From a virus, in IMG/VR virus record IMGVR_UViG_3300042197_002234, positions 131,528 through 195,527 of that record: DNA of 64,000 nt. One strand, given 5' to 3'. Shown here piece after piece: positions 5,732 to 54,289 of the stretch. The notes under the pieces were generated by a model. It did no database searches and was not told the DNA's origin. It was given only the letters and a program-made list of their open reading frames with translations. The position numbers and the translations under genes were made by a program. Each line of letters begins with the position of its first letter. Within the stretch, counting starts at the first letter, position 1.

Positions 5732-5795
5732 GTTATTTTTGTTTAATTTTGTTTATAACAAAGAAATATCGCAAATTTATTAAAAAGACAAAAAA

Positions 5796-14435: not shown

Positions 14436-14438
14436 AAA

Positions 14439-14657: not shown

Positions 14658-14770
14658 CCATAGATTTGTAATTAAAATTTATGTTTCTTTTGGAAACTGT
14701 TTTATTATAAATATTATAAACAACGAATAATTGTTAAGTGATGAATATTTATTGAGTAAAGACCAATTGT

Positions 14771-15277: not shown

Positions 15278-15325
15278 TCCTCAATCGAGGACTTTTAGGA
15301 CCGTTATCGTTTCGGTAACAAAATT

Positions 15326-38866: not shown

Positions 38867-39361
38867 ATGAGAAACATAAAATTAGAAAAAGCTTTATACA
38901 AAGTTTTTAACAATCTGTTTATAAAAGACAGACTTGATTTTTATGTTGAGGTTAAACCACACAAATTTGACGAAAATTCATATAAAATATACGTATGGTT
39001 AATTATTGACCAATCAAAATATTGGAAGAGTTCGCCAAATTATTCACAAGAATATTTTGATTTTGTTATGTCAATTTTTGAGGGTGATACTGAAGAAACC
39101 TTTAATGAGCTGGGTAAGTATGTAATACACGATAAATTGTTTTTCACTGGTGTTTTTTACAGACTTAGTAATAGGGGCGTATACAAACCATTATTTAATT
39201 CTCTAAAAGAAATGGGAATACATTACGTAATGAAAGAAAGTTATAGATTTCCATATCCTGAAATAATTTTAGATAAAAATATTCCTATGACAGTTGAGGA
39301 TGTTCAGGAAGAATTGAATGATGAATTTAATTTAGATGATATATTAATTTACTTCGGATAA
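38867..39361 (+). CDS. Hypothetical protein
   Basis: ATATTTAT at 38855-38862. Confidence 0.6.
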   Translation: MRNIKLEKALYKVFNNLFIKDRLDFYVEVKPHKFDENSYKIYVWLIIDQSKYWKSSPNYSQEYFDFVMSIFEGDTEETFNELGKYVIHDKLFFTGVFYRLSNRGVYKPLFNSLKEMGIHYVMKESYRFPYPEIILDKNIPMTVEDVQEELNDEFNLDDILIYFG

Positions 39362-39670
39362 TCCTTTACAACCCTCTTCGGATTTTGTTACTACTACCAC
39401 AACAGTCTCAACAGGAATAAAACTCTTAACGAAATTACTAATCTTAGTTTCAATACCCGACGTAAAATATTTGTTAACTAAGGCAAGAATTACTATTGTT
39501 TCATTATTTAAATAACTTGTGGTTACCACCGCAGTATCACAAACATTTTTAGCACCTAAAAATTGTACAACCATTTTTTCTATAGAGTCATCATACTTAC
39601 CCTTTTCAATATTTTCTTTATTGAATTTGGTAATTTCAAATAATTGATTCTCAGTTATAATGATTTTCAT
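39344..39670 (-). CDS. MKIIITE-leader hypothetical protein
   Basis: Leader plus ATATTTAT upstream. Confidence 0.65.
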   Translation of the reverse strand: MKIIITENQLFEITKFNKENIEKGKYDDSIEKMVVQFLGAKNVCDTAVVTTSYLNNETIVILALVNKYFTSGIETKISNFVKSFIPVETVVVVVTKSEEGCKGLSEVN

Positions 39671-39739
39671 ATTGATAAATATGACTTAAAAAGGAATTAC
39701 TCTTTTTACTTGGATTATATTTATAGTTAAACTAAGTTG

Positions 39740-40162
39740 ATGAACATAATTTTAACTTTATTATTGATTTTTAGTTTAATATCGTCTAAAGGTCAGGAAA
39801 TTGTTCCGTCAGTTACCGTAAATAATAAAGGTACTGCAGTACAATTATATTATCAGGAAATATTTAAGGAGGGTGATTTTAAATTTGGACCGAGAGTTGG
39901 TGTAACTTATCACCCGATAAACACAACTTGGTCACATTTTTATTGGCAAAATATTATTGAGTATAAAGGGGTATTTTTTTCACCATTTTGGTTAAGAAGT
40001 TATAACAAATCGATTGGGTATCAAATCCCAACAACTTTGGGTTACAAAGGTGAAACAAATATCGCAGACATTGAAGTGTGGGGTAACTATGTATATCACG
40101 CACGTACTTTTGATTTACACATTGTTATCTCACCTAAAAAACAAAGAATCCCTCTTAATTAA
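39740..40162 (+). CDS. Secreted beta-rich protein
   Basis: Signal peptide; alternating aromatic beta-strand pattern. Confidence 0.55.
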   Translation: MNIILTLLLIFSLISSKGQEIVPSVTVNNKGTAVQLYYQEIFKEGDFKFGPRVGVTYHPINTTWSHFYWQNIIEYKGVFFSPFWLRSYNKSIGYQIPTTLGYKGETNIADIEVWGNYVYHARTFDLHIVISPKKQRIPLN

Positions 40163-40290
40163 AGTTCGCACCATCCAAGACAAACTTTACCGAATGTGAT
40201 TTTTTTAACAAATTTACATAAACACTTTTTCATATTACATTTTTATAGATTTTTATTTTACACTTTGCAAGGTTTTTACTTTACAGATTA

Positions 40291-40656
40291 TTAATAATGG
40301 TCAACGGTTTTAACCTCTTCATTAAAATTATTTTCAAACCATTTGGCCATAACAGGTTTCCATCTATTACCAAATAACCCAAACAGACTACTAACCAAAT
40401 TTTCATCCTCAACCATTAGTATTGGTGACAATTTTTTTCTAAAATCATCATCATTGTACCAATAATCTTCTTTGTAAATACGAAAAATTGTATTGTCGTC
40501 ACCATAATCACCAAGATAATATTGAATTGCATTATCTGATTCATTATACTCATCATCAATATAATAAGTGTAATTAATATCATTAAAGTCATAATACTTG
40601 TCTAAGTAATCGACAATAACCTGAGTTAACTTATCTTCAGTGATAATAATTTTCAT
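40291..40656 (-). CDS. MKIIITE-leader W[VF]E-family protein, array-less
   Basis: C-terminus AKWFENNFNEEVKTVDHY; start reassigned. Confidence 0.7.
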   Translation of the reverse strand: MKIIITEDKLTQVIVDYLDKYYDFNDINYTYYIDDEYNESDNAIQYYLGDYGDDNTIFRIYKEDYWYNDDDFRKKLSPILMVEDENLVSSLFGLFGNRWKPVMAKWFENNFNEEVKTVDHY

Positions 40657-40738
40657 ATAACAATAAATAGTTTGTTTACAGTAAACGTTTACTGTAAACA
40701 AAAATCCCCTCTTTGTGGAGGTAGATTATTTTTTTAAA

Positions 40739-41083
40739 TTAGTTTAAATTTATTTTTACACCACCACCTGGTAATTCCGTACAACTCCATTTACCATTCT
40801 CAATCCCAACATTTTTCTCGTTCCATTTAGTCCAAGTACCGTCAGGTTCAAGGTCAATGGTTACACCACCTTTATCACCAAAAGTGGCACCTTGACTTGG
40901 TATATTTTCAATAAAACTTAAAAAAGGGTAATCACCTAGTTTATATCCAGACTTAAACGTTTTAGATAACTTATCCCAAGGAACTCTACATCCTATTGTC
41001 GTACTTTGCGACTGTTCTTCAGAAATAACTCGTTTAACAATTCTAATTAAATCTGTTTCTGTTAATCTTACAATTTTTGACAT
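40739..41083 (-). CDS. MSKIVRLTE-leader hypothetical protein
   Basis: Leader shared with 44413-44808. Confidence 0.65.
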   Translation of the reverse strand: MSKIVRLTETDLIRIVKRVISEEQSQSTTIGCRVPWDKLSKTFKSGYKLGDYPFLSFIENIPSQGATFGDKGGVTIDLEPDGTWTKWNEKNVGIENGKWSCTELPGGGVKINLN

Positions 41084-41091
41084 AATATTTT

Positions 41092-41442
41092 TTATATATA
41101 AATATTAATTAAATCATCAATTTTTAATCCCAAGGGGGGGATTCCAAGATATTCCATAATGTCATCTTCAGAATACAGTCTATCTCTATTATCTGTAATC
41201 GTGACACGTACAAAATTACTATCACCTTGATTTTGGTATAAGAATTTACCTTTAGGTGTTTCAATAACATACATTGGGCCAAAATTATTTAAATAACGGC
41301 TTAGCATTCTTGACCTAATATAACTAAATTCTTTAGGTAATTCATATTCGTTGGTCACCATATGAATTTTATCGGTCAGGTCAATACCTAATCTGTTCTC
41401 AATGAAATTTTTTAACTTATTCTCGGTGATTATTAACTTCAT
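41092..41442 (-). CDS. MKLIITE-leader hypothetical protein
   Basis: Start reassigned to MKLIITENKL. Confidence 0.65.
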   Translation of the reverse strand: MKLIITENKLKNFIENRLGIDLTDKIHMVTNEYELPKEFSYIRSRMLSRYLNNFGPMYVIETPKGKFLYQNQGDSNFVRVTITDNRDRLYSEDDIMEYLGIPPLGLKIDDLINIYI

Positions 41443-41603
41443 ACATATAAATAGCGTGAAATTAATAAACGCGGCGGGGAGGGGGTCGATTTTTAAGATG
41501 AATACCAAACAACCCGAAGGGGTCGGGGACGGACGACAAAAAATATACCGACGAAAGTCGGGTTCGGTTTATGCTGCCCCATTAAAAGTATGATTTTTTT
41601 ATC

Positions 41604-41777
41604 TTAATATTGTTCAAGCCAATTATTATACCACTTATCATTCCCCACATTTTCAAAAAACTCTTCTCTGTTTTTCTTAAACTCCTCAGAACATTTGGTA
41701 TGAACAAAATCACCATCTCCAACATGTTCCATTAGAGATTCATTTTCAATTTCTTTTTTACAGTGAAAACATTTCAT
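41604..41777 (-). CDS. 57-aa putative zinc-binding protein (not in ORF track)
   Basis: Manual translation MKCFHCKKEI...VHTKCSEEF; CxxC and HxxC; directly downstream of the tRNA-like gene. Confidence 0.55.
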   Translation of the reverse strand: MKCFHCKKEIENESLMEHVGDGDFVHTKCSEEFKKNREEFFENVGNDKWYNNWLEQY

Positions 41778-41794
41778 AACTTATATTTTAGTAG

Positions 41795-41914
41795 TAGTCA
41801 GGACAGGATTCGAACCTGTATGAAGAGTATGTGTGTCTCTTCTCCTATGGGTTTACCTCAAGGGTTTCCACCTGCCATCGCACGTTGTAGCGTCTACCAT
41901 TCCGCCACCTGACT
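41795..41914 (-). tRNA. Atypical tRNA-like RNA, 120 nt, no canonical anticodon arm
   Basis: Acceptor stem AGTCAGG/CCTGACT+A; D-arm GCGGAATGGTAGACGC; T-arm ACAGGTTCGAATCCTGT; about 70-nt central region; TATCTTTG promoter 41921-41928. Confidence 0.7.
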
Positions 41915-41957
41915 TGAATACAAAGATAGTACAGAATTTTGAATTTTCAAAATTTTT

Positions 41958-42335
41958 TTAATACCAATGGAACCAAACATTATTTACGTCCCAACCGTAG
42001 TGTCTCTTGGCAAACACTTTAATTAGATTATTAAAAGAATCTCTGGATGACTTATCTTTGTTAATTAAATTATGAACATTTAAAAACGGTAAGTTTGTAG
42101 AATTAAATAAGTCATCAATAAAATTAACTCCAACATAAAACTCTTTTCTTTCCCAATCATAATAAAATAATAAGTTTTCGTCATCCTCACTATCAAATAC
42201 TTCGGTATGGTCAATAGATTCAGAATAAGACTCGTAATTTTCAGGGTAAAACAAATACAATAACTTATACAAAACATCAGACTTTTTTTCCAAGTCCAAT
42301 AAATTAACTTGGTTTTCAGTTATAATGATTTTCAT
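41958..42335 (-). CDS. MKIIITE-leader protein, distant W[VF]E-family member
   Basis: Leader; C-terminus KVFAKRHYGWDVNNV. Confidence 0.65.
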   Translation of the reverse strand: MKIIITENQVNLLDLEKKSDVLYKLLYLFYPENYESYSESIDHTEVFDSEDDENLLFYYDWERKEFYVGVNFIDDLFNSTNLPFLNVHNLINKDKSSRDSFNNLIKVFAKRHYGWDVNNVWFHWY

Positions 42336-42715
42336 ACATATAAATATGATAGTTGTAACGGGATGTTCAACGTAGGTCCATCAACTATATAAACTGGTTC
42401 GTAGTAACTCGCCTTCCTTTGTAGGGTATGTTCAACCCACTTAACTATGAGTTCTTGAACTTCAGATTCTTGAAATCCAGTCATGGATGATAAAAATGAC
42501 CCAGTCATGGATGATAAAAATGATATTAAGTCATATGAAATATAACACGCGTCATCTTTATCAAACCTAATTTCAGCATATTCATCACCAATATTCTTAA
42601 CAAAATAAATCCTATCTTTAATTTCCACAAGATTATAATTCTTATTGTTTAATAACATAAAGATAAAACTCTTCTTAACATCCAATTCCTGATTTTCTGT
42701 TATAATTATTTTCAT
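42332..42715 (-). CDS. W[VF]E-family protein with C-terminal repeat-spacer unit
   Basis: Paralog of 43283 and 43645 ORFs; internal 24-nt duplication (SFLSSMTG x2). Confidence 0.75.
   Translation of the reverse strand: MKIIITENQELDVKKSFIFMLLNNKNYNLVEIKDRIYFVKNIGDEYAEIRFDKDDACYISYDLISFLSSMTGSFLSSMTGFQESEVQELIVKWVEHTLQRKASYYEPVYIVDGPTLNIPLQLSYLYV
42360..42436. CRISPR. Mini-array unit 1: partial repeat, 29-nt spacer, diverged 36-nt repeat
   Basis: Partial repeat 42360-42371; spacer 42372-42400; repeat 42401-42436 GTAGTAACTCGCCTTCCTTTGTAGGGTATGTTCAAC (6 mismatches to consensus). Confidence 0.55.
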
Positions 42716-42738
42716 ACATATAAATATGTTAGTTATAG

Positions 42739-42816
42739 GGTATGTTCAACACTCAGGTTAGCCTTTACTGTTCCTTTTGGGTTGTATCTCACCTCCATTT
42801 GTAAGTTATATTCAAT
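42739..42816. CRISPR. Mini-array unit 2, not attached to a family ORF
   Basis: Partial repeat 42739-42750; 30-nt spacer 42751-42780; repeat 42781-42816 (first 25 nt perfect, 3 mismatches after). Confidence 0.65.
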
Positions 42817-42997
42817 TTTTCCCAACATTACGTCTAAGTGGTTCTTTTTTGAAGAAGTACCCTGATATATCTACATAAGGTAATACCTCTCGGTCTCCTT
42901 CAATTGTGGTTGTACCATTTTTACCTTTTAACATCACAATTTTATATCCAAATTTGTTGGATAACCATTTGATAAATTTTACGTGTAATCTTTTCAT
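42812..42997 (-). CDS. Hypothetical protein
   Basis: 61-aa ORF; stop codon falls inside the repeat at 42781-42816. Confidence 0.55.
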   Translation of the reverse strand: MKRLHVKFIKWLSNKFGYKIVMLKGKNGTTTIEGDREVLPYVDISGYFFKKEPLRRNVGKN

Positions 42998-43000
42998 AAT

Positions 43001-43132
43001 TTAATTTATTTTAAGTTTTTTAGTAGTAATTTTTACTGAACCGTTTGTAATTGAGTTCATAATTTTTTGACATTCATTCCAGTTTTTACAATTAGTCAAA
43101 TCTACAGTAATTAAATTTCTTTCTTTTTTCAT
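43001..43132 (-). CDS. 43-aa hypothetical protein (not in ORF track)
   Basis: Manual translation MKKERNLITVDLTNCKNWNECQKIMNS...; TAAATTTG promoter 43164-43171. Confidence 0.5.
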   Translation of the reverse strand: MKKERNLITVDLTNCKNWNECQKIMNSITNGSVKITTKKLKIN

Positions 43133-43232
43133 ACAAATTTTAATTGTTTTAATATATGACAAACAAATTTACGAATAAAAACTGAATATAACAAATGATA
43201 AACAACATTAAAACGATTGTTTATCATCAGAC

Positions 43233-43375
43233 GGTATGTTCAACTTCCAATGACAAAGGGTATAATCGAAATGTGTTGTATCTCACCTCCATTTGTAAGG
43301 TATGTTCAACAACGGAAAATTGTCGATGTTCTTGACCATGTTGTATCTCACCTCCATTTGTAAGGTATGTTCAAC
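43233..43375. CRISPR. Mini-array 3: two perfect 36-nt repeats plus partial repeat, spacers 30 and 29 nt
   Basis: GTTGTATCTCACCTCCATTTGTAAGGTATGTTCAAC at 43275-43310 and 43340-43375; partial 43233-43244; spacers 43245-43274 and 43311-43339. Confidence 0.8.
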
Positions 43376-43630
43376 CCAGTTACCTATAAGTTCTTGAACT
43401 TCAGACCATTTAAACCCAGTCAAGGATGATAAAAATGATATTAAGTCATATGAAATATAACACGCGTCATCTTTATCAAACCTAATTTCAGCATATTCAT
43501 CCCCAATCTTTTTAACAAAATAAATATTATTGTTAATCTCAATAAGATTATAATTCATATTGTTTAATAACATGAAGATAATTTTCTTTTTAATATCCAA
43601 TTCCTGACTTTCAGATATGATGATTTTCAT
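43283..43630 (-). CDS. W[VF]E-family protein ending inside mini-array 3
   Basis: C-terminus WVEHTLQMEVRYN-(spacer)-LNIPYKWR; stop codon lies in the second repeat. Confidence 0.75.
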   Translation of the reverse strand: MKIIISESQELDIKKKIIFMLLNNMNYNLIEINNNIYFVKKIGDEYAEIRFDKDDACYISYDLISFLSSLTGFKWSEVQELIGNWVEHTLQMEVRYNMVKNIDNFPLLNIPYKWR

Positions 43631-43644
43631 GTAATATAAATATG

Positions 43645-43989
43645 TTAGTTATAGGGTATGTTCAACCATGAATCCAACTGTGCTTTTTTCAGTGGGTTGG
43701 ATTTCACCTCCATTTGTAAGGTATGTTCAACCCAGTTACCTATAAGTTCTATAACTTCATGCCTTAGGAACCCAGTCATGGTTGACAAAAATGAGATAAA
43801 TTTATGTGATATCAAACACGCACCATTACTTTTATTAAATCTAATATCACCTTTTTCATCCCCAATCTTTTTAACAAAATAAATATTATTGTTAATCTCA
43901 ATAAGATTATAATTCATATTGTTTAATAACATGAAGATAATTTTCTTTTTAATATCCAATTCCTGACTTTCAGTTATAATAATTTTCAT
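43645..43989 (-). CDS. W[VF]E-family protein with C-terminal repeat-spacer unit
   Basis: MKIIITESQELD start; WVEHTLQMEVKSN-(spacer)-LNIPYN. Confidence 0.75.
   Translation of the reverse strand: MKIIITESQELDIKKKIIFMLLNNMNYNLIEINNNIYFVKKIGDEKGDIRFNKSNGACLISHKFISFLSTMTGFLRHEVIELIGNWVEHTLQMEVKSNPLKKAQLDSWLNIPYN
43655..43731. CRISPR. Mini-array unit 4
   Basis: Partial repeat 43655-43666; 29-nt spacer 43667-43695; repeat 43696-43731 with 2 mismatches. Confidence 0.7.
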
Positions 43990-44324
43990 CACCAATTATC
44001 TTTGTTAACGAAGTTAATTCTTGTATTATCAACATATTTAAAACCTGTATACTCAATCATTTTTCTAAATTCGTATTTAAGAACAGATATATCAATTCCA
44101 TGAACAATCTTTTCTTTCTTTATTTCAGGTTTGTAATTAAAACTTTCTGGCATGTCAGGTTTTGAATGAATATCAACAACAAAACCATGGGATTCACCTC
44201 TATCACCATATCTAACATTAACTTTAAACTCAAATGGCTCGGTAACAAAATTATCAGTAAGATACTTGTTGCCAAGATTATTAAATAATTTAGTAAGAAT
44301 CGTAGATAGTGTGGTAAGATTCAT
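43989..44324 (-). CDS. Hypothetical protein
   Basis: Start reassigned to MNLTT after ATATTTAT; stop overlaps next start. Confidence 0.6.
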   Translation of the reverse strand: MNLTTLSTILTKLFNNLGNKYLTDNFVTEPFEFKVNVRYGDRGESHGFVVDIHSKPDMPESFNYKPEIKKEKIVHGIDISVLKYEFRKMIEYTGFKYVDNTRINFVNKDNW

Positions 44325-44412
44325 ATACATAAATATCGGACAGTCCGAAATAATGTCCAATAAAAAACCCCCAACATAAGAAGGGGGTTTATATTTTAAT
44401 TGTTAATTTATT

Positions 44413-44808
44413 TTAGTCTTCAAATGGGTCAGGAAAATCCATTCCTTCAATGGTGTCATAAAAATAATCAACCGTTCCTTCAATCATATCACTTGCGATT
44501 ATTTCTAATTCATTTAAGGTTTCATCAGATAAATCTTCCTCCTCCATGAAATTCATAAATAACTTATCAAGGTCGTATTGCATTTTATTTACATATACAT
44601 CAATATCATATGTTCCTCTAATGTGACCGTTTTCCAAATCTATTTCAAATAAGTTAACCACATTATTTATCACCTCTTCAATAAACTCTACATAATTCTC
44701 AGTTGGCAATGGAGGTAACATATCATAATCCTCATCTTCGTTTTCTTTAATTACTCTTTTTACGATACGAGCCAAATCGGCTTCGGTTAGTCTAACAATC
44801 TTTTTCAT
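44413..44808 (-). CDS. MKKIVRLTE-leader acidic protein
   Basis: Leader shared with 40739-41083. Confidence 0.65.
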   Translation of the reverse strand: MKKIVRLTEADLARIVKRVIKENEDEDYDMLPPLPTENYVEFIEEVINNVVNLFEIDLENGHIRGTYDIDVYVNKMQYDLDKLFMNFMEEEDLSDETLNELEIIASDMIEGTVDYFYDTIEGMDFPDPFED

Positions 44809-44838
44809 GATATTATTTTTATAATAAATATACGAAAA

Positions 44839-45180
44839 TTACAAAACTTTCCCATCTATAAGAACCTCATCAACATTAAAGTCGGATGACCAATCATAAT
44901 CATACGGAAACTTATCGGGTTCACAACAATTTCCAGTTTCAACATTCATCCTTGATTCAACCCAATGTTTAATCGGTTCTATTTTTTTCATCTCCATGGA
45001 AAGACATAAATAAATTGGTTTAAAAAAATCATAGTTCCACCAAGTGTATTTTGTTTTGGTATAATAAGATATAACCCATTCTTTTGTTTTTGGGTTAATT
45101 AACCAAATATGATTTTCGTGACCATAGACCAAGCAATCTTTGGTCATACCATCAATCATTTTAAAAAACGCGTTTTCCAT
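44839..45180 (-). CDS. W[VF]E-family protein, array-less
   Basis: KHWVESRMNVE; paralogous to 45161-45565; start ATG lies in the terminal partial repeat of array 5. Confidence 0.65.
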   Translation of the reverse strand: MENAFFKMIDGMTKDCLVYGHENHIWLINPKTKEWVISYYTKTKYTWWNYDFFKPIYLCLSMEMKKIEPIKHWVESRMNVETGNCCEPDKFPYDYDWSSDFNVDEVLIDGKVL

Positions 45181-45565
45181 TCAACACCTCTTCCACCCGT
45201 TCCCTACTTTGGAACCAACACAGTAAAGGTGTATTCACCTTGCAATTCAACACCTCTTCCACCTCCAACTCTAAAACGATGGTAGAATAAGGAGGTGTAT
45301 TCACCTTGCAATTCAACACCTCTTCCACCCACTCAGATATAATGGGTTCAAAATCATGTCGTTCAAATGAAAACCAAACAAAAAAATTATGAAAGAATGA
45401 ATGCCTCCACCATAGAGTTCCATCATTTTTATATTCAAAATACCAATACTTATTTTTCCTATCAATAAACCATATGGAATCATTGTATGGTATTATCTCA
45501 ACCTTAGATAATTCTTTATAAAGTTTCTTGAATATAGTATCTTTTAACTTGTTTGATATTTTCAT
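45161..45565 (-). CDS. W[VF]E-family protein translated through mini-array 5
   Basis: VEEVLNCKVNTP x2 plus VEEVLNG, separated by unrelated 10-aa spacers. Confidence 0.75.
   Translation of the reverse strand: MKISNKLKDTIFKKLYKELSKVEIIPYNDSIWFIDRKNKYWYFEYKNDGTLWWRHSFFHNFFVWFSFERHDFEPIISEWVEEVLNCKVNTPPYSTIVLELEVEEVLNCKVNTPLLCWFQSRERVEEVLNGKRVF
45179..45329. CRISPR. Mini-array 5: second repeat type, two perfect 36-nt repeats plus partial, two 30-nt spacers
   Basis: GGTGTATTCACCTTGCAATTCAACACCTCTTCCACC at 45228-45263 and 45294-45329; partial 45179-45197; spacers 45198-45227 and 45264-45293. Confidence 0.8.
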
Positions 45566-45723
45566 AATACAATGATACTAAAATAATTTGAAATAAAAAA
45601 ACGGGAGTGTTCCCAAAAATTTTATTTTAACTTTCCGACTCATTTTATATAAGGGGGTCGTTTTTATGGGAAAATAAAAAACCCCCACCAAAAGGTTTTT
45701 GAATCAAAGATATTTAACATCAG

Positions 45724-46158
45724 ATGAAACCAATAGAACAAACAAAATTTTCACTATTTTATCCAGACGGAAAAAGAGCCACATATGGAAATTGCTTAAT
45801 AGCAAATATTGCATCAATATTAGAAGAATCAATAAATGAGGTACCAAACATATACGTGTTTTACGGAATGGAAAAAAAAGAAACCCCCATTGAAGAACAA
45901 ACATGGTTTAATGTGTTAAACATATGGTTAAAATTTAAACACAATAAAATCATGACAAAACATGAACTATATGAACCAACTAAATCAAAATACGTAATAA
46001 TGAGAGGTCTATCACCAAAAGACAGAGCACATACTTGCATATATGAAAATACTAATAAAGGGTTTGTTATGGTTCATGACCCACACCCATTATCGGTCGG
46101 ATTAAAAACACTACAGTACTATTATACTATAGAAAATGTGACTACGACCCAAAAATAA
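45724..46158 (+). CDS. Hypothetical phage protein
   Basis: GNCL.A.IASILE...VP...H.C....VHDPHP pattern; A/C-rich codon use. Confidence 0.65.
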   Translation: MKPIEQTKFSLFYPDGKRATYGNCLIANIASILEESINEVPNIYVFYGMEKKETPIEEQTWFNVLNIWLKFKHNKIMTKHELYEPTKSKYVIMRGLSPKDRAHTCIYENTNKGFVMVHDPHPLSVGLKTLQYYYTIENVTTTQK

Positions 46159-46426
46159 ATTTAAATATCTTTCCCCTTATATTATCAATCTTTTTTATTG
46201 CCAACCATTTACCACACACCCCACCACCAACATAAAAAACAATTACAAAAACATCCCCACTTAATAACCCCTCTAATGAATAAAACACGGAACCTATTGA
46301 TAATAAATTAATCCATACTGTGTTGAGCAATAATGGAACCAATTTATTTTCATAGGTATACTTAATTTCCAAAACTTTGAATATGTTGAATAATAATTGA
46401 AATATGAAAATAATGAAATATGTCAC
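46142..46426 (-). CDS. 3-TM membrane protein
   Basis: Three hydrophobic helices; FYVGGGVCG. Confidence 0.6.
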   Translation of the reverse strand: MTYFIIFIFQLLFNIFKVLEIKYTYENKLVPLLLNTVWINLLSIGSVFYSLEGLLSGDVFVIVFYVGGGVCGKWLAIKKIDNIRGKIFKFIFGS

Positions 46427-46583
46427 AATTCAAATATAAAGTATGAACCCAACTTTATGAATATTTTCTCCAAAATTACAGAAAATTTTTTTTTAGGAAT
46501 TGGGGTCCAAATTAAAATGGGGGTCGTGCTCTGGGAAATAAAAAACCTCACTGTTTAGGTGGGGGTTTATAAGTATTATTTTT

Positions 46584-47030
46584 TTACTTTAATTTTTGAC
46601 TTGCTAATACCCCTATTTGTTGGACAAGATTTGTATAACTATTAAAGTGCCCAATTGCAGAATCAATAGCTCTTATTAAGTTATCTCTTTTTTGTGTCGG
46701 CATTTTTGAAGATGTTATCTTATTCTTTAATGATGACAATTCATTCATTATTTTTTGATTTGGTTTGTCAAGTTTTTGTAGACTATCCATCTGTCTCTTT
46801 AAATTATTTAGATATTTGAAATAATCGTATCCTTCACCTCTCCATACACCCTTAAGACCTGAAACCATATCAGATAGTCCCTCTGTCGGTTCTTCTTTCT
46901 TAATCTTTAATCCGTTTATTTCATCGCCAAACGCAACACCCTTCATGTTTTCACTAACGGTATGTCCTTCATTAACATATTGACTCAATATAGATTTTCT
47001 ATCTTCTTCAGAAATTATAAATCTTCTCAT
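46584..47030 (-). CDS. MRRFIISE-leader coiled-coil protein
   Basis: GTATTTAT upstream; internal EPTE motif. Confidence 0.65.
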   Translation of the reverse strand: MRRFIISEEDRKSILSQYVNEGHTVSENMKGVAFGDEINGLKIKKEEPTEGLSDMVSGLKGVWRGEGYDYFKYLNNLKRQMDSLQKLDKPNQKIMNELSSLKNKITSSKMPTQKRDNLIRAIDSAIGHFNSYTNLVQQIGVLASQKLK

Positions 47031-47120
47031 AATATATTCTTTAGTTATAAATACTTCCCATTTTCCAAAAATTTTTCTGGAAATTTTTTCCAGAATTTTT
47101 AATACATACTTTGCAAAGGG

Positions 47121-47250
47121 GATTATCCCCCCTTTTTGACCCCCAAAACCCTATATATGGAGGGGGGATACGGGGGAGGGGAGGGGTCCCCCACCCTATA
47201 GGGGGGTATATCAGGGGGTAGTCCTTTTGTTTTGACCCCTGACTCCCCAC
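47121..47250 (+). other. G/C homopolymer tract cluster with G-quadruplex potential
   Basis: GGGGGGATACGGGGGAGGGGAGGGG at 47162-47186 and further G runs at 47201 and 47214; C runs at 47127-47150. Confidence 0.6.
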
Positions 47251-47352
47251 CTCTCTGTAATGGTCTCTAATGAGGTCATGTCAAAACAATGACATATCCA
47301 AATAAAGTTATTAACATGACAGGATGACATGGGGGAATTGTTAATAAAAAGA

Positions 47353-47384
47353 TTTGGTAGTCTCGATTATTATTCGTAACTTTG
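47353..47384 (+). promoter_or_regulatory. Bacteroidetes sigma70-type promoter
   Basis: TTTG (47353-47356), 20-nt spacer, TAACTTTG (47377-47384). Confidence 0.7.
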
Positions 47385-47390
47385 TATACC

Positions 47391-47465
47391 TTTTGAGTTG
47401 GGGTCAAACCCATCTCCTCTAACACATAATCTTACATGTGGGAGCGAGTATACTCCAACCTGCTT
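47391..47465 (+). ncRNA. Candidate small structured RNA
   Basis: Directly after a consensus promoter, no ORF; nested stems GTTGGGG/CTCCAAC, CTCC/GGAG, CACAT/ATGTG. Confidence 0.35.
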
Positions 47466-47531
47466 TATAGTTAATATAAAGTTTCCCCATATTTGTTTGG
47501 TTAAGTGGACACTATTTTGTATCTTTGTGTT

Positions 47532-47936
47532 ATGTATTCAGCGACACCATTATCTACATTAAGGAAGAAGGACCTCAGAAAGATTGGTCAGGTCTGCATT
47601 AACTATTGTATTGAGAACCTTGGGGTTAATAAAAGAAAGAAGTTACCTCTTAAGTTATCCATCAAAAAGAATCCCCATGTTGATTCTTACTTTGGGGAGT
47701 ATTGTCCTGATACCAATACCATTGTTATATTCTATGATGAGTTGATTACCCTTGGGGAGTTTACCTCTACCATTGTTCATGAGTATACTCACCACTTACA
47801 GCCAATTGCTAGTAAGTACTACAAGTTACTTAAGGAACATGGATATGATAACCATCCCCATGAAGTGGAAGCTAGAAATAATGAGAAGTTCTATAACCGT
47901 AGAGTTCTTGCTTATCTAAGAAAAAACCTTCCTTAA
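47532..47936 (+). CDS. HExxH putative metallopeptidase
   Basis: VHEYTHH...HPHEVEAR; TTTG-N20-TATCTTTG promoter ending 47527. Confidence 0.7.
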   Translation: MYSATPLSTLRKKDLRKIGQVCINYCIENLGVNKRKKLPLKLSIKKNPHVDSYFGEYCPDTNTIVIFYDELITLGEFTSTIVHEYTHHLQPIASKYYKLLKEHGYDNHPHEVEARNNEKFYNRRVLAYLRKNLP

Positions 47937-48203
47937 TAGGGTTTCCCTTGAATGGGTTCTTATCTCCATGTTAATGTCGTTGAAGTCTTCTGAACTTAGT
48001 GGGGACTTCTGATGTATCATTTCTATTATGTCCCCCATGTTTGAGTTAACCATTAAGTATACAGGTTTACCTTTCATCAGTAGATTTGTCATTATGTAGT
48101 TTACATATGTAACACTACCTGAATATTCCCCCACATTATATATCACATCATACCCTTTCTCTGTGGGGACAACCTTTGTTTGTATTCCTTCTAAGTAACT
48201 CAT
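47916..48203 (-). CDS. Hypothetical protein
   Basis: ATATTTAT upstream. Confidence 0.55.
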   Translation of the reverse strand: MSYLEGIQTKVVPTEKGYDVIYNVGEYSGSVTYVNYIMTNLLMKGKPVYLMVNSNMGDIIEMIHQKSPLSSEDFNDINMEIRTHSRETLLRKVFS

Positions 48204-49224
48204 GTTAATAAATATATTATGGAACGTATAAATGTGAATAACTTTTTTATTATGAATTGGTCCTGACAGTATGACAGAGGGGAAAATTGTTGAAAACTTT
48301 TTGTTAAAAAACTTGTTTTTGTCAAAATGTCAGTCTTGCTCGATGATGGGGATAATCCCCTCACAGGGAAATCAGCTAACACAAGTTCCCACTTTTTCCC
48401 ACCATAACATACCGATTTCCTTTGTGGCTATACCGTAATGAGGATTTTTTCCCCTCTGACAATAGTCTAAACAATACTTTTTTTACTATATGTATTTCCC
48501 AGTAAATAATGTACTTAACGGTACATAGAGCGGGGAAACACGTAGTGTGTTAGAAACTAACACCCGATTACCATGAGATGTGTTAGAAATAATCTTCAAC
48601 CCCCGACTATAAGGAGGTTTAGTGGACCAATATAGACCACTTAATAGACCATTATATCACCCACCATAACAACAACTTATGGACATCTAAGACATGTGGG
48701 GGAAAGTGGGAGTGTCGAAGACCGACCACAGGGAGTTATCGTTTATATCCTTATTGTCAGGTTTCACCTGACCATGGTGATATACTATACAACTCCCTAA
48801 TTATACCATTTAGTATAATACCATAAGGTATAAAATAATATATACCCTTTAGGGTATTACTCTATACAATACCATATATATTATACCCTATCAGGTCCAT
48901 TATTGTGTTGACCATAATAAAGGGGGGGCAGTATAATGGGGGGATTTTACCGTATGGTAATAATATGACGGTAAAGTATTGGTCTATATAGGAATATTCC
49001 TGAACGGTAATATTTACTCTCGTTTTTAATACGAAGGTAATGTTTACCCACATATTCCTTTTCGTAATCCCCATTACTGTAATGACCATTACGATAAATG
49101 GAACGATGGATTAAGAAATGAAGATTCTAATGGAACGAAACGCCAGTGGAGTGGAATGGTCACGATAGTGAAGAATCTGAATTACTTAATTCATTGTTTC
49201 GTTTATCCTTATATTTATATCTAT

Positions 49225-49530
49225 ATGAAGTATATCATAACTAATAAACAACTACATAACCTAATGACTAATCACTTAAATCAATTTATGGATAGTCGTG
49301 ATGTTAGTAAGTTTGATAACTTTATTATCATTTCAGAAACTGACGAATTATATGATTTTAACAATGTTAGTATTGAATACGATTACGAAGATGGTAGATT
49401 GTTTATTGATGAACACTTTATAAACGATTTCATTTCTTGGTTCCCAGTTGGTGTAGAAAGCGCTGAGGATTTCATAAAAGATTGGTTTGAAGAAACCTTT
49501 AACGTTAAAGTAGAATATACACAATCGTAG
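49225..49530 (+). CDS. MKYIIT-leader W[VF]E-family protein, array-less
   Basis: C-terminus IKDWFEETFNVKVEY; ATATTTAT at 49211. Confidence 0.7.
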   Translation: MKYIITNKQLHNLMTNHLNQFMDSRDVSKFDNFIIISETDELYDFNNVSIEYDYEDGRLFIDEHFINDFISWFPVGVESAEDFIKDWFEETFNVKVEYTQS

Positions 49531-49531
49531 T

Positions 49532-49966
49532 ATGAAAATAGTAATCACAGAATCTAAAATGCAAAGTGCACTTCTTAAGTTACTTAAGATTACATTCCCT
49601 GGCTTTGAGGATATATACTACGATTGGGCTAACTATAATTGTGGTATGGGTGAATGTTGTGACCCTTATGCCATTGGATTTGTTCTATCCCAAAACAATT
49701 ATGACGATTACCTATTTAAGTTGGTTGAAAGTAAGTATTATGATGATGATGGTGATTACTCTAGAAACCTTAGTGATGACCTACCTGAACTCTGTTATGA
49801 GTCACCTGATGTTAGAGACCCTCGTTTTGATGTTATTATATTTTATGAAGTATTCGCTGAAGAACTTGAACAATACTTGGGACCAAAGTCTCTATGGGAA
49901 AATGAATTATTAAATTTATTAAACAGAATGTTCTTTATGGACGCTAAAACAATTTTATTTATATGA
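49532..49966 (+). CDS. MKIVITE-leader protein
   Basis: Leader; coupled to neighbours. Confidence 0.65.
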   Translation: MKIVITESKMQSALLKLLKITFPGFEDIYYDWANYNCGMGECCDPYAIGFVLSQNNYDDYLFKLVESKYYDDDGDYSRNLSDDLPELCYESPDVRDPRFDVIIFYEVFAEELEQYLGPKSLWENELLNLLNRMFFMDAKTILFI

Positions 49967-50367
49967 AATTTATTATTACTGAAAATCAACAAGAAAATAT
50001 TATAAAACAATTGGTTAAATCTAATGGGTTTAGATTTGCATCTCGTGTTGTTGGTAGTCCTGATAGAGTTATTGATATAGGATTTAATAATGACCCGAAT
50101 GAATTTTTAAAATTATTTAATGACATGAGTGTTCGTAAACTTAAATCAACACTATGGGTTTATAGTACAGATGGTCATAACATTGTATTATATAATCCTA
50201 GAAAAAAAGAAGCCACCGTAAACTATAATGATTTCTATGAAGTTCTTATTGAGGGATTTAAGCTTACGAGTCAAGAAGTTAGGTCAATAACTGAAAAGTT
50301 ATTATTGGACAATTATAAAATAAAAGTTAATAAGATTGGTTTTTTCCCTATTAATCAATCGTTATAG
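49963..50367 (+). CDS. MKFIITE-leader protein
   Basis: Leader; coupled to neighbours. Confidence 0.65.
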   Translation: MKFIITENQQENIIKQLVKSNGFRFASRVVGSPDRVIDIGFNNDPNEFLKLFNDMSVRKLKSTLWVYSTDGHNIVLYNPRKKEATVNYNDFYEVLIEGFKLTSQEVRSITEKLLLDNYKIKVNKIGFFPINQSL

Positions 50368-50373
50368 TAAAAT

Positions 50374-50703
50374 ATGAAATACATTATAACAGAATCTAAA
50401 ATTAATACGTTAATTGATAAATTTATCACACAACAGTTTGGTAAACTAAATCATGAGTTTGACGGTGATAGACTTATATTGGTTAGTGACACTGGTGAAC
50501 CTATGATTGTTATTGTGGATAGAGGTGACGGACCTGAGGTTCACGTTGATATGGATGTCTATGGTGCCATTTATAATATGTTCTCCATGAATGATTTTGA
50601 GGATATTCAGTCCTCTTTAATTAAATGGTTTCGTAAACACTATAATATATCCGTGGACGATATATTTACATTTGCCAGTGGTGAAGAAAATTATATATAT
50701 TAA
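50374..50703 (+). CDS. MKYIITE-leader W[VF]E-family-like protein
   Basis: LIKWFRKHYNISVDD C-terminus. Confidence 0.65.
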   Translation: MKYIITESKINTLIDKFITQQFGKLNHEFDGDRLILVSDTGEPMIVIVDRGDGPEVHVDMDVYGAIYNMFSMNDFEDIQSSLIKWFRKHYNISVDDIFTFASGEENYIY

Positions 50704-51540
50704 TTACCACTGTCTTTCTTCAGGAGGAAATGTATTTATATAATCCTCCACTTCCACGTAATTATCACCAATCCATTTTCTTAATTCTTTGCTAAGTTCA
50801 TATACGAACTCATCCTCACTAAGGTAACGCCAATTCTTATACTTAATAACAACCAATACTCTTTTTCTATCATTAACAATACCTACATCTGATACACTAA
50901 CTTTTACATCAGCATCAATTAACTCACAAGCACTAAATGAAATAATTTCATCATCTTCTGAGTTCATTATTTCACAAGTAAGTTTCATATCATTTACTAT
51001 ATCATCAACAAGTTTCTGAATACGTTCCCTCCTAATTTGGTATTGTGGTTTTTCAATTTCCTCATTCATGTTTCTTATTATTTTTCTTATGGATTCATAT
51101 AAGTTCGGCGAATCTTTGTTCCATTTTTTTACATCACCACTTCCTGTTCCTTCATACTTTAGAGTTATTGCTTCTTTTGGTATATCTTGAAATGTTACAA
51201 TATGTTTTTTTGTTGACTCAAAGTGTCTATCTTTATACCATTTAACATCAGGAATCATCCTTGTGTCTATAAACCATATATCATCATCGTATGATGAATC
51301 GAACCACGCTCTTTTATTTGTTGAATTGGTTGCAAATATTGCTGGTTTACATTTAACTCCATAACCCACATATATTTTATAACATTCCCCCGCCCTTACT
51401 TTAAGTCCCTGTTCCATTATCTTATCTCTAAACATTGGATTAGACTTATGAACAATAATTGAATTGGGTATGATTTCTTTCCCTGCTGGAGAATAATCAT
51501 CTTCCCTTAATATTCTTCTTATGGATTCTTGTAGGTTCAT
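50704..51540 (-). CDS. MNLQE-leader fusion protein; N-terminal ADP-ribosyltransferase-like domain
   Basis: VHKS.....DKIMEQGL...AIFAT pattern; internal second leader NLYESIRKIIR. Confidence 0.55.
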   Translation of the reverse strand: MNLQESIRRILREDDYSPAGKEIIPNSIIVHKSNPMFRDKIMEQGLKVRAGECYKIYVGYGVKCKPAIFATNSTNKRAWFDSSYDDDIWFIDTRMIPDVKWYKDRHFESTKKHIVTFQDIPKEAITLKYEGTGSGDVKKWNKDSPNLYESIRKIIRNMNEEIEKPQYQIRRERIQKLVDDIVNDMKLTCEIMNSEDDEIISFSACELIDADVKVSVSDVGIVNDRKRVLVVIKYKNWRYLSEDEFVYELSKELRKWIGDNYVEVEDYINTFPPEERQW

Positions 51541-51541
51541 A

Positions 51542-52069
51542 TTAATCTAACCATTTTGCGTTTAATCCTATATATACATTGGGTTGTATGAATCCGTCAG
51601 GGAATTGAATGAATGTTTGTGTCGTTCTATGCCACCCTTCACCTAATTCATATTTACCATCTTTGGTTTCAAATAAAATAATTGGTTCTTGTGATATGCC
51701 TTTGCTTTGAAGTAATTCTTTTTGTGTTTCGTGTCTTTCAGTATCTTTTTCCACATCTTGTCTTACTTCACCTTGAATTCTACTTTCCAATTGTTTTTTT
51801 GTGTTTTCAGTAAAAATATCCATTGACATTGGAAAATCTTTTTCATATACCCACTCTAAATCTTTTACCCATTCATCAATCCATTCTGTAATACCTTCAT
51901 ATGTGTTTACATCATCTGATTGTGTTATCATTTTATAAACCCAATCTCTTAATACATATTCAGGAGTGTTTGGTAATTTTTTTTTTAACCAATTAAACAT
52001 TCCTTGTCTTGTTTCAGTAACAATCCCCATCATTTGTCTAATTCTTTGTATGTTTTCTTGTAGGTTCAT
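51542..52069 (-). CDS. MNLQE-leader ParB/sulfiredoxin-like domain protein
   Basis: EPIILFETKDGKYELGEGWHRT. Confidence 0.6.
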   Translation of the reverse strand: MNLQENIQRIRQMMGIVTETRQGMFNWLKKKLPNTPEYVLRDWVYKMITQSDDVNTYEGITEWIDEWVKDLEWVYEKDFPMSMDIFTENTKKQLESRIQGEVRQDVEKDTERHETQKELLQSKGISQEPIILFETKDGKYELGEGWHRTTQTFIQFPDGFIQPNVYIGLNAKWLD

Positions 52070-52497
52070 ATCGTATAACAAAATTTAACTTCTAATTCTA
52101 TCTCATCCCATAATGGATTATTTTTATCCATATAGTTTTGTAATAAATAGATTGCAGATATTCTATGTGCCCCATCTTGAATTACATCATCCACAACAAT
52201 AATTGGTGGTAAGTTTCTCAACGACTTTGGATTTCGTTTCATGTATCTTGCATACTCAACAACTTTTTTGGTTACACCCCAACTATAATCGTCATTAAGA
52301 ACATCTTCTAAAACTTCTTTGTAATAAGGAATTCTTTGTATTCTACCATCTAATATTTCGTCAATTGTAAGATAATCGGTATCACAATCCATATTATCCA
52401 TTTCATAGTTTGATAATGGTTTTCCTGATGACTCACCAGGTTGTGGGACATTTAATTCTTCCCTTAATATTCTTCTTATGTTTTCTTGTAGGTTCAT
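52066..52497 (-). CDS. MNLQE-leader ParB/sulfiredoxin-like domain protein
   Basis: LPPIIVVDDVIQDGAHRISA. Confidence 0.65.
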   Translation of the reverse strand: MNLQENIRRILREELNVPQPGESSGKPLSNYEMDNMDCDTDYLTIDEILDGRIQRIPYYKEVLEDVLNDDYSWGVTKKVVEYARYMKRNPKSLRNLPPIIVVDDVIQDGAHRISAIYLLQNYMDKNNPLWDEIELEVKFCYTI

Positions 52498-52979
52498 TTC
52501 TTCGTTTTCTTTACACAATTAGGGTATCTCTTACCAAACATTGTCTTCATTCCTTTTTGGGTGTATCCTGGCCAACACTTTTCTGTTAACTCACCTTCAT
52601 TCTGTTCTTGTTTCTGTAATCTAATTGTCTTTTCCTTTGACTTTTCTTTTACAGTTTCAATATAGTCGTATGCTCTTTTTAACCTTTGTTTTGTTTCTGG
52701 GTCTTTTGCGTTTTGATATGCGGCTCTTACTCTTTGGTGTATAAGATTAATTATCTGTGATTGTCTCTTATGGGGTTTAGATTTGAAACTATCTTTGTTT
52801 AATGTATCCACGATATCCTCTTTTGTTCTAAACTTTACAGATACCGTATCATTTGGATTCTCGTCGGTATATAATCTTCTTCCTGAACCTTTGGGTTTCT
52901 TACCTGTTCCTGTCTTGGGGTCAGATTCATTCAATAGTTCTTCCCTTAATATTCTTCTTATGGATTCTTGTAGTGTCAT
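52494..52979 (-). CDS. MTLQE-leader basic protein with C-terminal CWxGY module
   Basis: SGRRLYTDENP domain; CWPGYTQKGMKTMFGKRYPNCV tail. Confidence 0.65.
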   Translation of the reverse strand: MTLQESIRRILREELLNESDPKTGTGKKPKGSGRRLYTDENPNDTVSVKFRTKEDIVDTLNKDSFKSKPHKRQSQIINLIHQRVRAAYQNAKDPETKQRLKRAYDYIETVKEKSKEKTIRLQKQEQNEGELTEKCWPGYTQKGMKTMFGKRYPNCVKKTKK

Positions 52980-52989
52980 ATTAATACTT

Positions 52990-53580
52990 TTAAAATCCTA
53001 ATTGTTTTCTTCTTTCTACAGTATCTACAATGTCCAGATAGAAATCTTCAAGGTCTCTTTCTCCTGATTTAATTTTATCAATTATTTCATCTCTTCTATA
53101 TGCCGTATTTTTATTAATAAAATCAATCATTTCTTCATCAGTAATTCCTTCAGGTTTTGTTGGTTCAGGAATACAATCATATTCTTCGGTGTAATCAATA
53201 TCCGTTATATATAAACCACTTTCTCCAGTTATTTTTTCAAATTCAGGCACCATAGTTTCATCATACCATTCCTCAATTATTTGAACTATGTATGATTTTC
53301 TCACACTAAAAAAAGATTGTAGGTCATCGATAAGTGATTCTGAAACCATTAAACTCCCATTTATGAATTCTTCGTCGTCAAAGTAATAAACTACTGTGAT
53401 GGTTTCTTTTCCGTTAACGCACCAATCTTCTCGTAAATTACCATAAGTACGAGATTTAATCCCTATTTTTCGTCTACCTTTTGAAATATACGTGTTTAAA
53501 TAATTCTTTATTGAGTCACTAATTTTGGGACTAGAAGTTAAAAACTTTTTATATTGTGTTTCAGTAATAATAAATCTCAT
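52990..53580 (-). CDS. MRFIITE-leader protein
   Basis: Start reassigned; ATATTTAT at 53609-53616 on minus strand. Confidence 0.65.
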   Translation of the reverse strand: MRFIITETQYKKFLTSSPKISDSIKNYLNTYISKGRRKIGIKSRTYGNLREDWCVNGKETITVVYYFDDEEFINGSLMVSESLIDDLQSFFSVRKSYIVQIIEEWYDETMVPEFEKITGESGLYITDIDYTEEYDCIPEPTKPEGITDEEMIDFINKNTAYRRDEIIDKIKSGERDLEDFYLDIVDTVERRKQLGF

Positions 53581-53608
53581 ATAATGTTTTCTGTTAAATT
53601 CACTATTA

Positions 53609-53627
53609 ATAAATATTCGATATTTAT
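53609..53627. promoter_or_regulatory. Back-to-back ATATTTAT motifs serving divergent leader-bearing genes
   Basis: ATAAATAT 53609-53616 and ATATTTAT 53620-53627; same layout at 38837-38862 and 7323-7345. Confidence 0.6.
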
Positions 53628-53634
53628 CTTTAAG

Positions 53635-53922
53635 ATGAAACTCATTATAAAAGAAGCACAAGTAAGTCAATTGTTAAGTGTTTATGATAGACTGATGAAC
53701 TCAGAACAGTATGATGGTGTCTGTAACATTAATATTGATTACGATGAAATTATGGATAGGTTCGTATTGAACGTGTTTTTTAATCGTAGTTTTATTATAA
53801 ATCTTGGGTCAGGAGGTCAACAGTCTCGTTACTTAAAAAAAACTTTTAATGAGATTGGTAAAAAGTTCTTATCTTTTACAAATAATAACCCGTTAATGTA
53901 CCAACACTTTTCAGATTGTTAA
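53635..53922 (+). CDS. MKLIIKE-leader protein
   Basis: Start reassigned. Confidence 0.6.
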   Translation: MKLIIKEAQVSQLLSVYDRLMNSEQYDGVCNINIDYDEIMDRFVLNVFFNRSFIINLGSGGQQSRYLKKTFNEIGKKFLSFTNNNPLMYQHFSDC

Positions 53923-53926
53923 TAAC

Positions 53927-54289
53927 ATGAAAATTATAATAACAGAGTCTAAATTAGAAGATACTATCCTTAAGTTTTTGGACAATAATAATTTTGTTGT
54001 TTATAAAGGAGGAAGAAGTTTCAACTCTTACATTTATTTTTTGGAAGATGGAGATGATAATCAAGCAATGATTAGTGTGTATCATAGAAACGCTTTTGGA
54101 GAAATTAGAAATTGGGTTTATGTTAATCCCAAACTAATTAATCGTGTAACTTTATTTGTTCCTATTGATGAAAAAGATTTTTTAAATATTGTTTCACATT
54201 GGGTGAGTAATGTTTTAAATATGAAAATAAATAGTGTTGAAAACGCATTCCGTACAGACCAAGGACATAGATTGGATGTACGTCTTTAA
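53927..54289 (+). CDS. MKIIITE-leader W[VF]E-family protein
   Basis: SHWVSNVLNMKINS...LDVRL tail, aligns loosely with repeat-spacer-LNIP tails but shows no DNA repeat. Confidence 0.65.
   Translation: MKIIITESKLEDTILKFLDNNNFVVYKGGRSFNSYIYFLEDGDDNQAMISVYHRNAFGEIRNWVYVNPKLINRVTLFVPIDEKDFLNIVSHWVSNVLNMKINSVENAFRTDQGHRLDVRL

Follow-up and report, generated by a model that had tools for sequence, protein, structure and literature searches.

CRISPR-like repeat-spacer arrays at the ends of small protein-coding genes in a freshwater jumbo phage

We examined a stretch of 64,000 nucleotides (nt) of viral DNA, hereafter the window, which comprises bases 131528-195527 of the 195.5-kb IMG/VR record IMGVR_UViG_3300042197_002234 (estimated completeness 65%). 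Our subject is a locus at window positions 43233-43989, where small protein-coding genes run directly into arrays that resemble those of CRISPR systems, together with a related gene and array nearby. The source is a freshwater jumbo phage. The window has a GC content of approximately 30%, its DNA was found in freshwater metagenomes from several studies, and its auxiliary genes include those for Hsp70, thymidylate synthase, PPK2 and purine enzymes.

Small phage genes that run into repeat-spacer arrays

The central gene of the locus, which we call A-type, lies on the minus strand at 43283-43630 and was taken from the open reading frame (ORF) list. It encodes a protein of 115 amino acids that starts MKIIISESQ, and its last codons cross a first repeat, a first spacer and part of a second repeat, all on the minus strand. 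Repeat 1 (43340-43375) is 36 nt long, has the form GTTG...ACAAC and encodes VEHTLQMEVRYN, a C-terminal motif conserved in the family. Spacer 1 (43311-43339; 29 nt, 38% GC) moves the reading frame by one, so that repeat 2 (43275-43310), identical to repeat 1 at 36 of 36 positions, is translated as LNIPYKWR and a stop codon. The predicted protein thus ends ...NW-VEHTLQMEVRYN-MVKNIDNFPL-LNIPYKWR-stop, with identical repeat DNA read in two frames, as the initial annotation of this DNA had reported. Past the stop codon the minus strand continues with a 30-nt spacer 2 (43245-43274) and a truncated terminal repeat (43233-43244), which consists of the repeat's first 12 nt and is followed by GTCTGA. 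The initial annotation had correctly placed a 30-nt spacer and a repeat beyond the stop, but this spacer is the second of the array rather than the third, and the repeat is the 12-nt remnant.

The same annotation had treated 43233-43731 as one interval. That interval does hold the array of gene 43283-43630, but its upper part belongs to a neighbouring A-type paralog on the minus strand (43645-43989; 114 amino acids). The paralog's own array (43655-43731, minus strand) consists of a repeat with two mismatches (43696-43731), a 29-nt spacer (43667-43695) and a 12-nt truncated repeat (43655-43666), and the next gene starts 24 nt beyond it. A further paralog at 42332-42715 completes a set of three in tandem on the minus strand; its array (42360-42436, minus strand) has a decayed repeat with six mismatches, a 29-nt spacer and a truncated repeat. 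There is also an orphan unit without a family gene body (42739-42816, minus strand), made of a repeat with three mismatches, a 30-nt spacer and a truncated repeat, and the stop of an unrelated ORF (42812-42997) falls within its repeat. With the array at 45161-45329, described below, there are five array clusters in the window. Across the whole record a repeat spacing of 65-66 nt was found only at this locus and at 45161-45329, a collagen-like gene aside, and we therefore do not regard the A-type layout as a product of chance.

We found 212 homologs of the A-type protein. Members of the family start MK-I/Y-I/L-I-T-E and finish W-V-E-x-x-L; in an alignment of 15 members the W never varies, and conservation of V-E-x-x-L extends to paralogs that lack an array. 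The AlphaFold (AF2) model of the A-type protein is confident (predicted local distance difference test 86, predicted template modelling score 0.79); in it the repeat encodes residues 86-97, which close helix 3 and make up the strand after it. The model's confidence is low for the spacer-coded tail. Because the motif is conserved in array-less paralogs and the repeat-coded residues are structured in the model, the first repeat copy is best read as ordinary coding sequence that specifies a predicted structural motif of the family. No family could be assigned to ten members by Pfam and PHROGs searches, and a Foldseek search of the model against the PDB gave nothing at E <= 0.001. A wide VIA fold search gave a best Z of 4.9, with weak rows of helix-turn-helix-like folds that were rated as common arrangements, and INPHARED contained no protein match for the family and DNA matches at chance level only.

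Past the first repeat, the A-type arrays do not keep to a frame. Among 120 homologs, 73 have a first spacer of 29 nt, 19 one of 31 nt and 10 one of 30 nt. Some A-type spacers carry stops, the peptides that the spacers encode are distinct in 91 of 102 cases, and repeat copies occur in all three frames. The later copies are thus kept as DNA regardless of frame. To this extent the proposal of the initial annotation, that the repeat is conserved as nucleic acid and not as protein, holds for the later copies among the 120 homologs; it fails for the first copy, which is conserved as protein through W-V-E-x-x-L.

The second kind of gene, which we call B-type, lies on the minus strand at 45161-45565 and encodes 134 amino acids. 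Its array (45161-45329) is built from a repeat of its own, also of 36 nt and different from that of the A-type. It comprises full copies at 45293-45328 and 45227-45262, two spacers of 30 nt and a truncated copy of 18 nt; every copy is in frame, and the truncated one overlaps the ATG of the downstream gene. The B-type repeat encodes the homologous peptide VEEVLNCKVNTP. The two repeats are homologous as protein, and both are 36-mers of the form G-K-T-G...ACAAC, offset by 1 nt from each other. B-type homologs number 834, with protein lengths that step by 22 amino acids, and a 294.7-kb sister phage contains six B-type genes, whose six arrays lie within 9 kb and have up to 11 units each.

B-type arrays are read throughout as protein. 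In 480 codons their reading frame has no stop, whereas every one of the remaining five frames contains 14-36. In the 48 units examined the repeat starts one base ahead of the codon boundary; the last base of the spacer is G in 41 of the 48, and the repeat's codon-aligned position 36 is free. The frame is free of stops and the repeat edge lies off the codon boundary, and we therefore suggest that insertion acts on DNA and that translation is selected afterwards. Each B-type array end is overlapped or abutted by the start of the next gene, and translational coupling with that gene may be the reason for which the open frame is selected.

The spacers themselves look foreign to the genes in which they lie. 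Their GC content is 43%, against 31% in the gene bodies, with near-even base use and no codon periodicity. At 33 IMG/VR loci we collected 60 B-type arrays with 224 spacers, of which 223 are exactly 30 nt long. These spacers form 131 unrelated clusters, and the pairwise distances among them are random-like, with a mode of 22 of 30 positions.

Comparison of homologous arrays reveals turnover between phages and a clear polarity. With each spacer given a number, five such arrays read 0-1-2-3, 0-1-4-5-3, 17-4-5-3, 1-13-14-15-16-3 and 40-14-15-16-3: units distal to the gene are common to several phages, and units adjacent to the gene are new. Pairs of arrays that share a spacer share only the last in 25 cases and only the first in 2, counts that are not independent given that the arrays are related; with the same dependence, repeat decay rises with distance from the gene body (rho 0.51). 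A phage approximately 95% identical to ours, from a lake sample of another study, has an extra 36-nt repeat and a new 30-nt spacer on the gene-proximal side of the 45161-45329 array, and the distal spacer of this array differs in it as well. The A-type offers a parallel, one array (P0210) being another (P0232) plus one proximal unit. Spacers are also reshuffled among arrays, and recombination therefore occurs.

Several other features of these genes deserve mention. At least 11 genes (window 39344-54289 and record 13813-15318) start MK-I/L/Y-I/V-I/L-T-E-S/N-Q or -K; most encode approximately 110-145 residues with unrelated middles, and they make up a large paralog set. The paralog at 42332-42715, which has the most decayed repeat (six mismatches), contains a 24-nt tandem duplication within the gene (42401-42555; SFLSSMTG twice). 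Contigs from three runs in two studies join 42349 to 43969 and omit 1,619 bases, a weak observation in that the shorter side of the joint spans 21 bases; such a joint would delete the tandem A-type paralogs via their similar 5' ends. Directly past the truncated repeat of gene 43283-43630 there is an AT-rich palindrome (ATGATAAACAA...TTGTTTATCAT) at 43188-43232. In one lake sample the summed contig depth there is 673, against approximately 20 in the flanks, and many contigs match 43188-43232 and then diverge at 43233-43242. This stretch looks like a multi-copy element common to many contexts, perhaps a terminator.

Likeness to Cas13b-associated repeats and the sense of the arrays

We used both ends of the B-type repeat as a search pattern and scanned one genome per species for 185,579 species. 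The pattern matched 17 loci, all of them Bacteroidota arrays and most from Flavobacteriales, among them arrays of Flavobacterium columnare, F. covae, Bergeyella zoohelcum ATCC 43767, Riemerella, Capnocytophaga, Chryseobacterium and Aquimarina. Large ORFs adjoining the matched arrays were Cas13b in all five that were scanned (NF038190, E 1e-139 to 1e-273), the protein of CRISPR type VI-B. Over the ends, the B-type repeat and the VI-B repeats match at 18 of 19 positions.

For the A-type repeat the likeness takes another form. It has GTTG(G)AACATACC in common with VI-B repeats of Chryseobacterium and Prolixibacteraceae, and its plus strand matches an Aquimarina repeat adjoining cas13b at 25 of 36 positions without gaps, the best among the VI-B repeats retrieved. 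The initial annotation had proposed that similarity to VI-B repeats should exceed that of shuffled sequence, and on both strands the A-type repeat was indeed closer than shuffles that preserve its ends (p ~0.005). The GTTG/CAAC ends and the ACCT/AGGT stem that it described are present, and its suggestion of a Cas13b-like hairpin is borne out in the ORF sense, where the predicted RNA has an outer stem of 4-5 base pairs and an inner stem of 6 base pairs in the topology of the F. columnare repeat. Real F. columnare arrays have periods of 65-67, matching the A-type spacer range of 29-31 nt, and the II-C motif of this species is NNNNNTAAA.

The initial annotation took the plus strand to be the possible sense of the CRISPR RNA. 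We favour the ORF strand as the repeat sense because four features point to it: the variable end of the arrays at the gene body, the terminal repeat that retains its 5' part, the position of the GTTGT motif and the better fold. Genuine VI-B arrays end in a truncated repeat that retains the 5' 20-25 nt; the phage arrays also end in a truncated repeat with the 5' part (12 or 18 nt), but only if they are read in the ORF sense. Read toward the gene body, the phage repeats start GTTGT, which is the leader-distal motif common to II-C and VI-B repeats (Hoikkala et al. 2021, PMC8092290). The fold energy of the A-type repeat is -6.5 kcal/mol in the ORF sense (z -2.0) and -3.6 kcal/mol on the plus strand, the latter no better than shuffles (z -0.3). 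The sole point for the plus strand is a U-rich loop (AUUUGU), which is found on that strand only.

In the course of these comparisons we observed alternating half-repeats at genuine VI-B loci (L047, Bergeyella zoohelcum, 4466-6298; and L058). These are the "long direct repeat" units of Smargon et al. (bioRxiv 10.1101/092577), each with another sequence placed between a 5' and a 3' fragment of the repeat.

Origin of the arrays

We think it probable that the arrays arose by integration of the kind seen in CRISPR adaptation, directed to a phage gene end that resembles a VI-B repeat, and that the enzyme was most likely the Cas1-Cas2 of the host. The spacers are foreign in composition and unrelated to one another, and the repeats between them are identical, all of which we count in favour of an origin by integration. 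Cas1-less VI-B arrays of F. columnare are loaded in trans by the II-C Cas1-Cas2 (PMC8092290), and cas1 and cas2 are lacking from VI-B loci (Smargon et al., bioRxiv 10.1101/092577). Searches of six phage records, of which one is 100% complete, yielded neither cas1 nor cas13b; for cas2 the search covered the window's record and found none. The cas13b model NF038190 had no match in that record or in four related phage records, a search in which the control genomes gave no match either; on bacterial loci this model had reached E-values of 1e-139 or lower. Because the phage records have no cas1 or cas13b, and because VI-B arrays are loaded in trans in F. columnare, a host integrase is the candidate that we prefer.

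Under this proposal, the 36-nt repeat is the 3' end with which the coding sequence of a small phage gene naturally finishes, and its length and ends are those of a Flavobacteriales VI-B repeat. Unrelated DNA pieces of 29-31 nt would be inserted beside it, with 36 nt duplicated each time, most likely by the host's Cas1-Cas2 acting in trans. The gene body would stand in the place of the leader, such that new units enter beside the gene, old units drift distally and a truncated repeat marks the end. Later repeat copies could fall in any frame because insertion would work on DNA. An A-type protein would then terminate within the following repeat or shortly past it, that repeat having stops in its two other frames, and in the B-type only stop-free 30-nt inserts would survive, with the result that the whole array is translated.

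A number of observations weigh against this proposal. Over its inner 17 nt, the B-type repeat agrees with VI-B repeats no better than expected by chance (3-4 of 17 positions) and forms no inner stem, and the B-type repeat of this window starts GGTG and ends ACACC rather than ACAAC. In the ORF sense, the loop of the A-type repeat (UUACAAAUGG) is A-rich, unlike the poly-U loop that defines VI-B repeats. Single-spacer A-type arrays swap their spacer yet keep the 12-nt stub, which would need deletions via very short homology. No source was found for the spacers when exact 23-24-nt cores of five of them were searched: three cores had no match in IMG/VR (spacers 1 and 2 of the 43283-43630 array being among those without a match), and of two cores searched in JGI metagenomes one had no match and the other matched four other arrays only. 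The spacers of the window and of the sister phage were also unmatched in approximately 1,170 different sampled Flavobacteriales genomes, in searches whose sensitivity for 30-nt queries was not validated. These were BLAST-type searches of 401 order, 401 family and 371 genus genomes for the sister phage's 43 spacers and of 401 order genomes for the window's arrays, and they returned AT-rich chance matches outside the spacers only; with two candidates scored per genome, this negative is a weak one. Spacer 1 had no other match within the phage record, the 131 spacers had none in a related 195-kb phage, and the cultured phages of INPHARED gave only chance DNA matches to the spacers.

What a phage might gain from such arrays is a separate matter. 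One possibility, which we put forward tentatively and with less confidence than the integration itself, is that the gene family evolved a 3' end that passes for a host Cas13b-type repeat, into which the host integrase writes captured DNA, with the phage gaining from an integration decoy, from repeat RNA that occupies Cas13b or from variable peptide tails.

An alternative, compatible with the proposed origin and in our judgment unlikely, is that these are working phage guide arrays, whose units, transcribed as part of the mRNA or antisense to it, are cut by a host Cas13b into guides of spacer plus repeat and used against rival phages or host transcripts. The length, ends and hairpin topology of the A-type repeat are those of VI-B, repeat ends are kept over many phages, and viral mini-arrays and solitary repeats are known (PMC10651486). 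On the plus strand, moreover, a full repeat with the U-rich loop follows every spacer, even in single-spacer units; when read in the ORF sense, the spacer of most A-type arrays is not followed by a complete repeat, and the plus strand is the one whose fold does not improve on shuffles. Neither the inner stem nor the poly-U loop is present in the B-type repeat, and guides would have no need of the open-frame selection that B-type arrays display (no stop in 480 codons). The searches described above also returned no protospacer for the five spacer cores in viral collections or for spacers in cultured phages, nor a match between the 131 spacers and the related 195-kb phage.

Quite unlikely, in our view, is a role as mimic or decoy alone, in which the repeats are RNA anti-CRISPRs that tie up Cas13b or DNA decoys that divert the host integrase, and the spacers are a by-product. 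Mimicry by solitary repeats is an established anti-CRISPR strategy of phages, but viral solitary repeats have been found for all CRISPR types except type VI (PMC10651486). The many copies per genome (five clusters in the window, six arrays within 9 kb of the sister phage) and the concentration of the VI-B likeness at the repeat ends, where an integrase reads, would suit a decoy; the repeats lie within coding sequence, however, unlike small RNAs behind a promoter.

We consider it highly improbable that the arrays are an ordinary protein tandem repeat, in which unequal crossing-over, together with gene conversion among paralogs, multiplied a unit of 22 residues and the CRISPR likeness is coincidental: the motif is conserved as protein even in distant array-less paralogs, B-type arrays are fully translated with lengths that step by 22 residues and the reshuffling of spacers shows recombination, but duplication would have copied the spacers, which are unrelated between repeats that are identical even at synonymous sites, and this account also has to accommodate unit edges off the codon boundary, A-type copies in all three frames, a foreign spacer composition (43% against 31% GC), a match to VI-B repeats at 18 of 19 end positions and a terminal repeat truncated as in genuine arrays.

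Several other mechanisms were weighed and set aside. Translational bypassing of the sort known from T4 gene 60 would, by landing on the 12-nt stub, remove the conserved motif. A diversity-generating retroelement does not fit with the constancy of the A positions of the repeat, and integron attC sites and shuffling cassettes of the PeSL type do not have a fixed geometry of 36 and 30 nt. Homopolymer sequencing errors were discounted as the source of 29-nt spacers, since among 120 independent homologs no length is as frequent as 29 nt.

Comparison with known systems and other features of the window

Set beside the VI-B arrays of Flavobacteriales, the phage arrays have in common a 36-nt repeat, spacers of 29-31 nt, GTTG...CAAC ends, the leader-distal GTTGT of the opposite strand, an A-type hairpin with two stems, growth at one end, a terminal repeat truncated to its 5' part and the lack of cas1 and cas2 at the locus. 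They differ in that the phage has no cas13b, a gene occupies the leader position, the first repeat belongs to coding sequence and the arrays are translated. In addition, a poly-U loop is missing in the sense to which the array architecture points, the B-type has no inner stem, and no protospacers are known.

Off-target "neo-CRISPR" integration of spacers by Cas1-Cas2 at repeat-like sites was reportedly described by Nivala, Shipman and Church in Nat Microbiol in 2018. The concept of off-target Cas1-Cas2 integration is mentioned in PMC6698737. As there, the phage loci lie apart from any canonical array and have a spacer-length insert between duplicated, repeat-length copies of ordinary sequence: what has been duplicated is the 36 nt of conserved codons with which the gene itself ends, and an additional unit of 36 and 30 nt is seen in the sister population. 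The difference is that the sites are in a phage genome, are inherited, are common to hundreds of metagenomic relatives and have been extended up to 11 times. The retention of repeat-like ends across these relatives looks selected rather than accidental.

Virus-borne mini-arrays, which are said to have been described by Faure and by Medvedeva, both in 2019, are used against rivals in archaea. Huge phages reportedly carry CRISPR arrays without Cas genes (Al-Shayeb and colleagues, Nature, 2020), and these resemble the present arrays in belonging to environmental jumbo phages and in lacking an adaptation module; they differ in being intergenic and non-coding. We know of no array in that work that sits on a gene end and is translated as protein. 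Viral solitary repeats, RNA anti-CRISPRs and mini-arrays (Camara-Wilpert et al. 2023, PMC10651486) offer a further parallel, in that a Cas-less virus carries host-type repeats, sometimes with one or two spacers. Viral solitary repeats are non-coding, stand behind promoters and are near-identical to those of the host, whereas the repeats described here are coding, lie within ORFs and are VI-B-like mainly at their ends; their best identity to a VI-B repeat is 25 of 36, and promoter-like sites in the window occur at chance level.

In the literature that we searched there was no description of arrays that are built on a phage gene and translated with it. Viral solitary repeats, mini-arrays and off-target integration are known; what that literature did not contain is an array grafted on a phage gene. 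The window also holds an A-type family in which the frame is not kept. CRISPR arrays are usually seen as the non-coding memory of cells or as separate loci of phages, and in this case the repeat is coding and the inserts become protein. If a host integrase is responsible, phage genomes would be substrates of CRISPR adaptation as well as sources of spacers. Type VI, the sole type without viral repeat copies in a large survey (PMC10651486), would then join those with known repeat mimicry, and the arrays would be a natural case of a DNA-capture enzyme that writes near-random 10-residue cassettes into proteins. They could also provide a route to the hosts of uncultured jumbo phages. For annotation projects we add a warning that these stretches will be called by CRISPR finders as well as by gene callers, and that either call is correct.

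Rfam and transfer RNA scans of the window found nothing, and a scan for promoters and terminators returned sites at chance level only. The stretch at 44791-44843, upstream of and into the start of gene 44413-44808 (TTTTGTAATTTTCGTATATTTATTATAAAAATAATATC-ATG), has short matches with 83-96% identity in approximately 20 sampled Flavobacteriales genomes. These may reflect a promoter or leader of the Bacteroidota type, or merely AT-rich chance similarity. A cluster of host-like metabolic genes occupies window positions 10841-32476 and includes a GMP reductase/IMPDH-like gene, PPK2 and Hsp70, along with a split-looking adenylosuccinate synthetase and a long thymidylate synthase of 404 amino acids.

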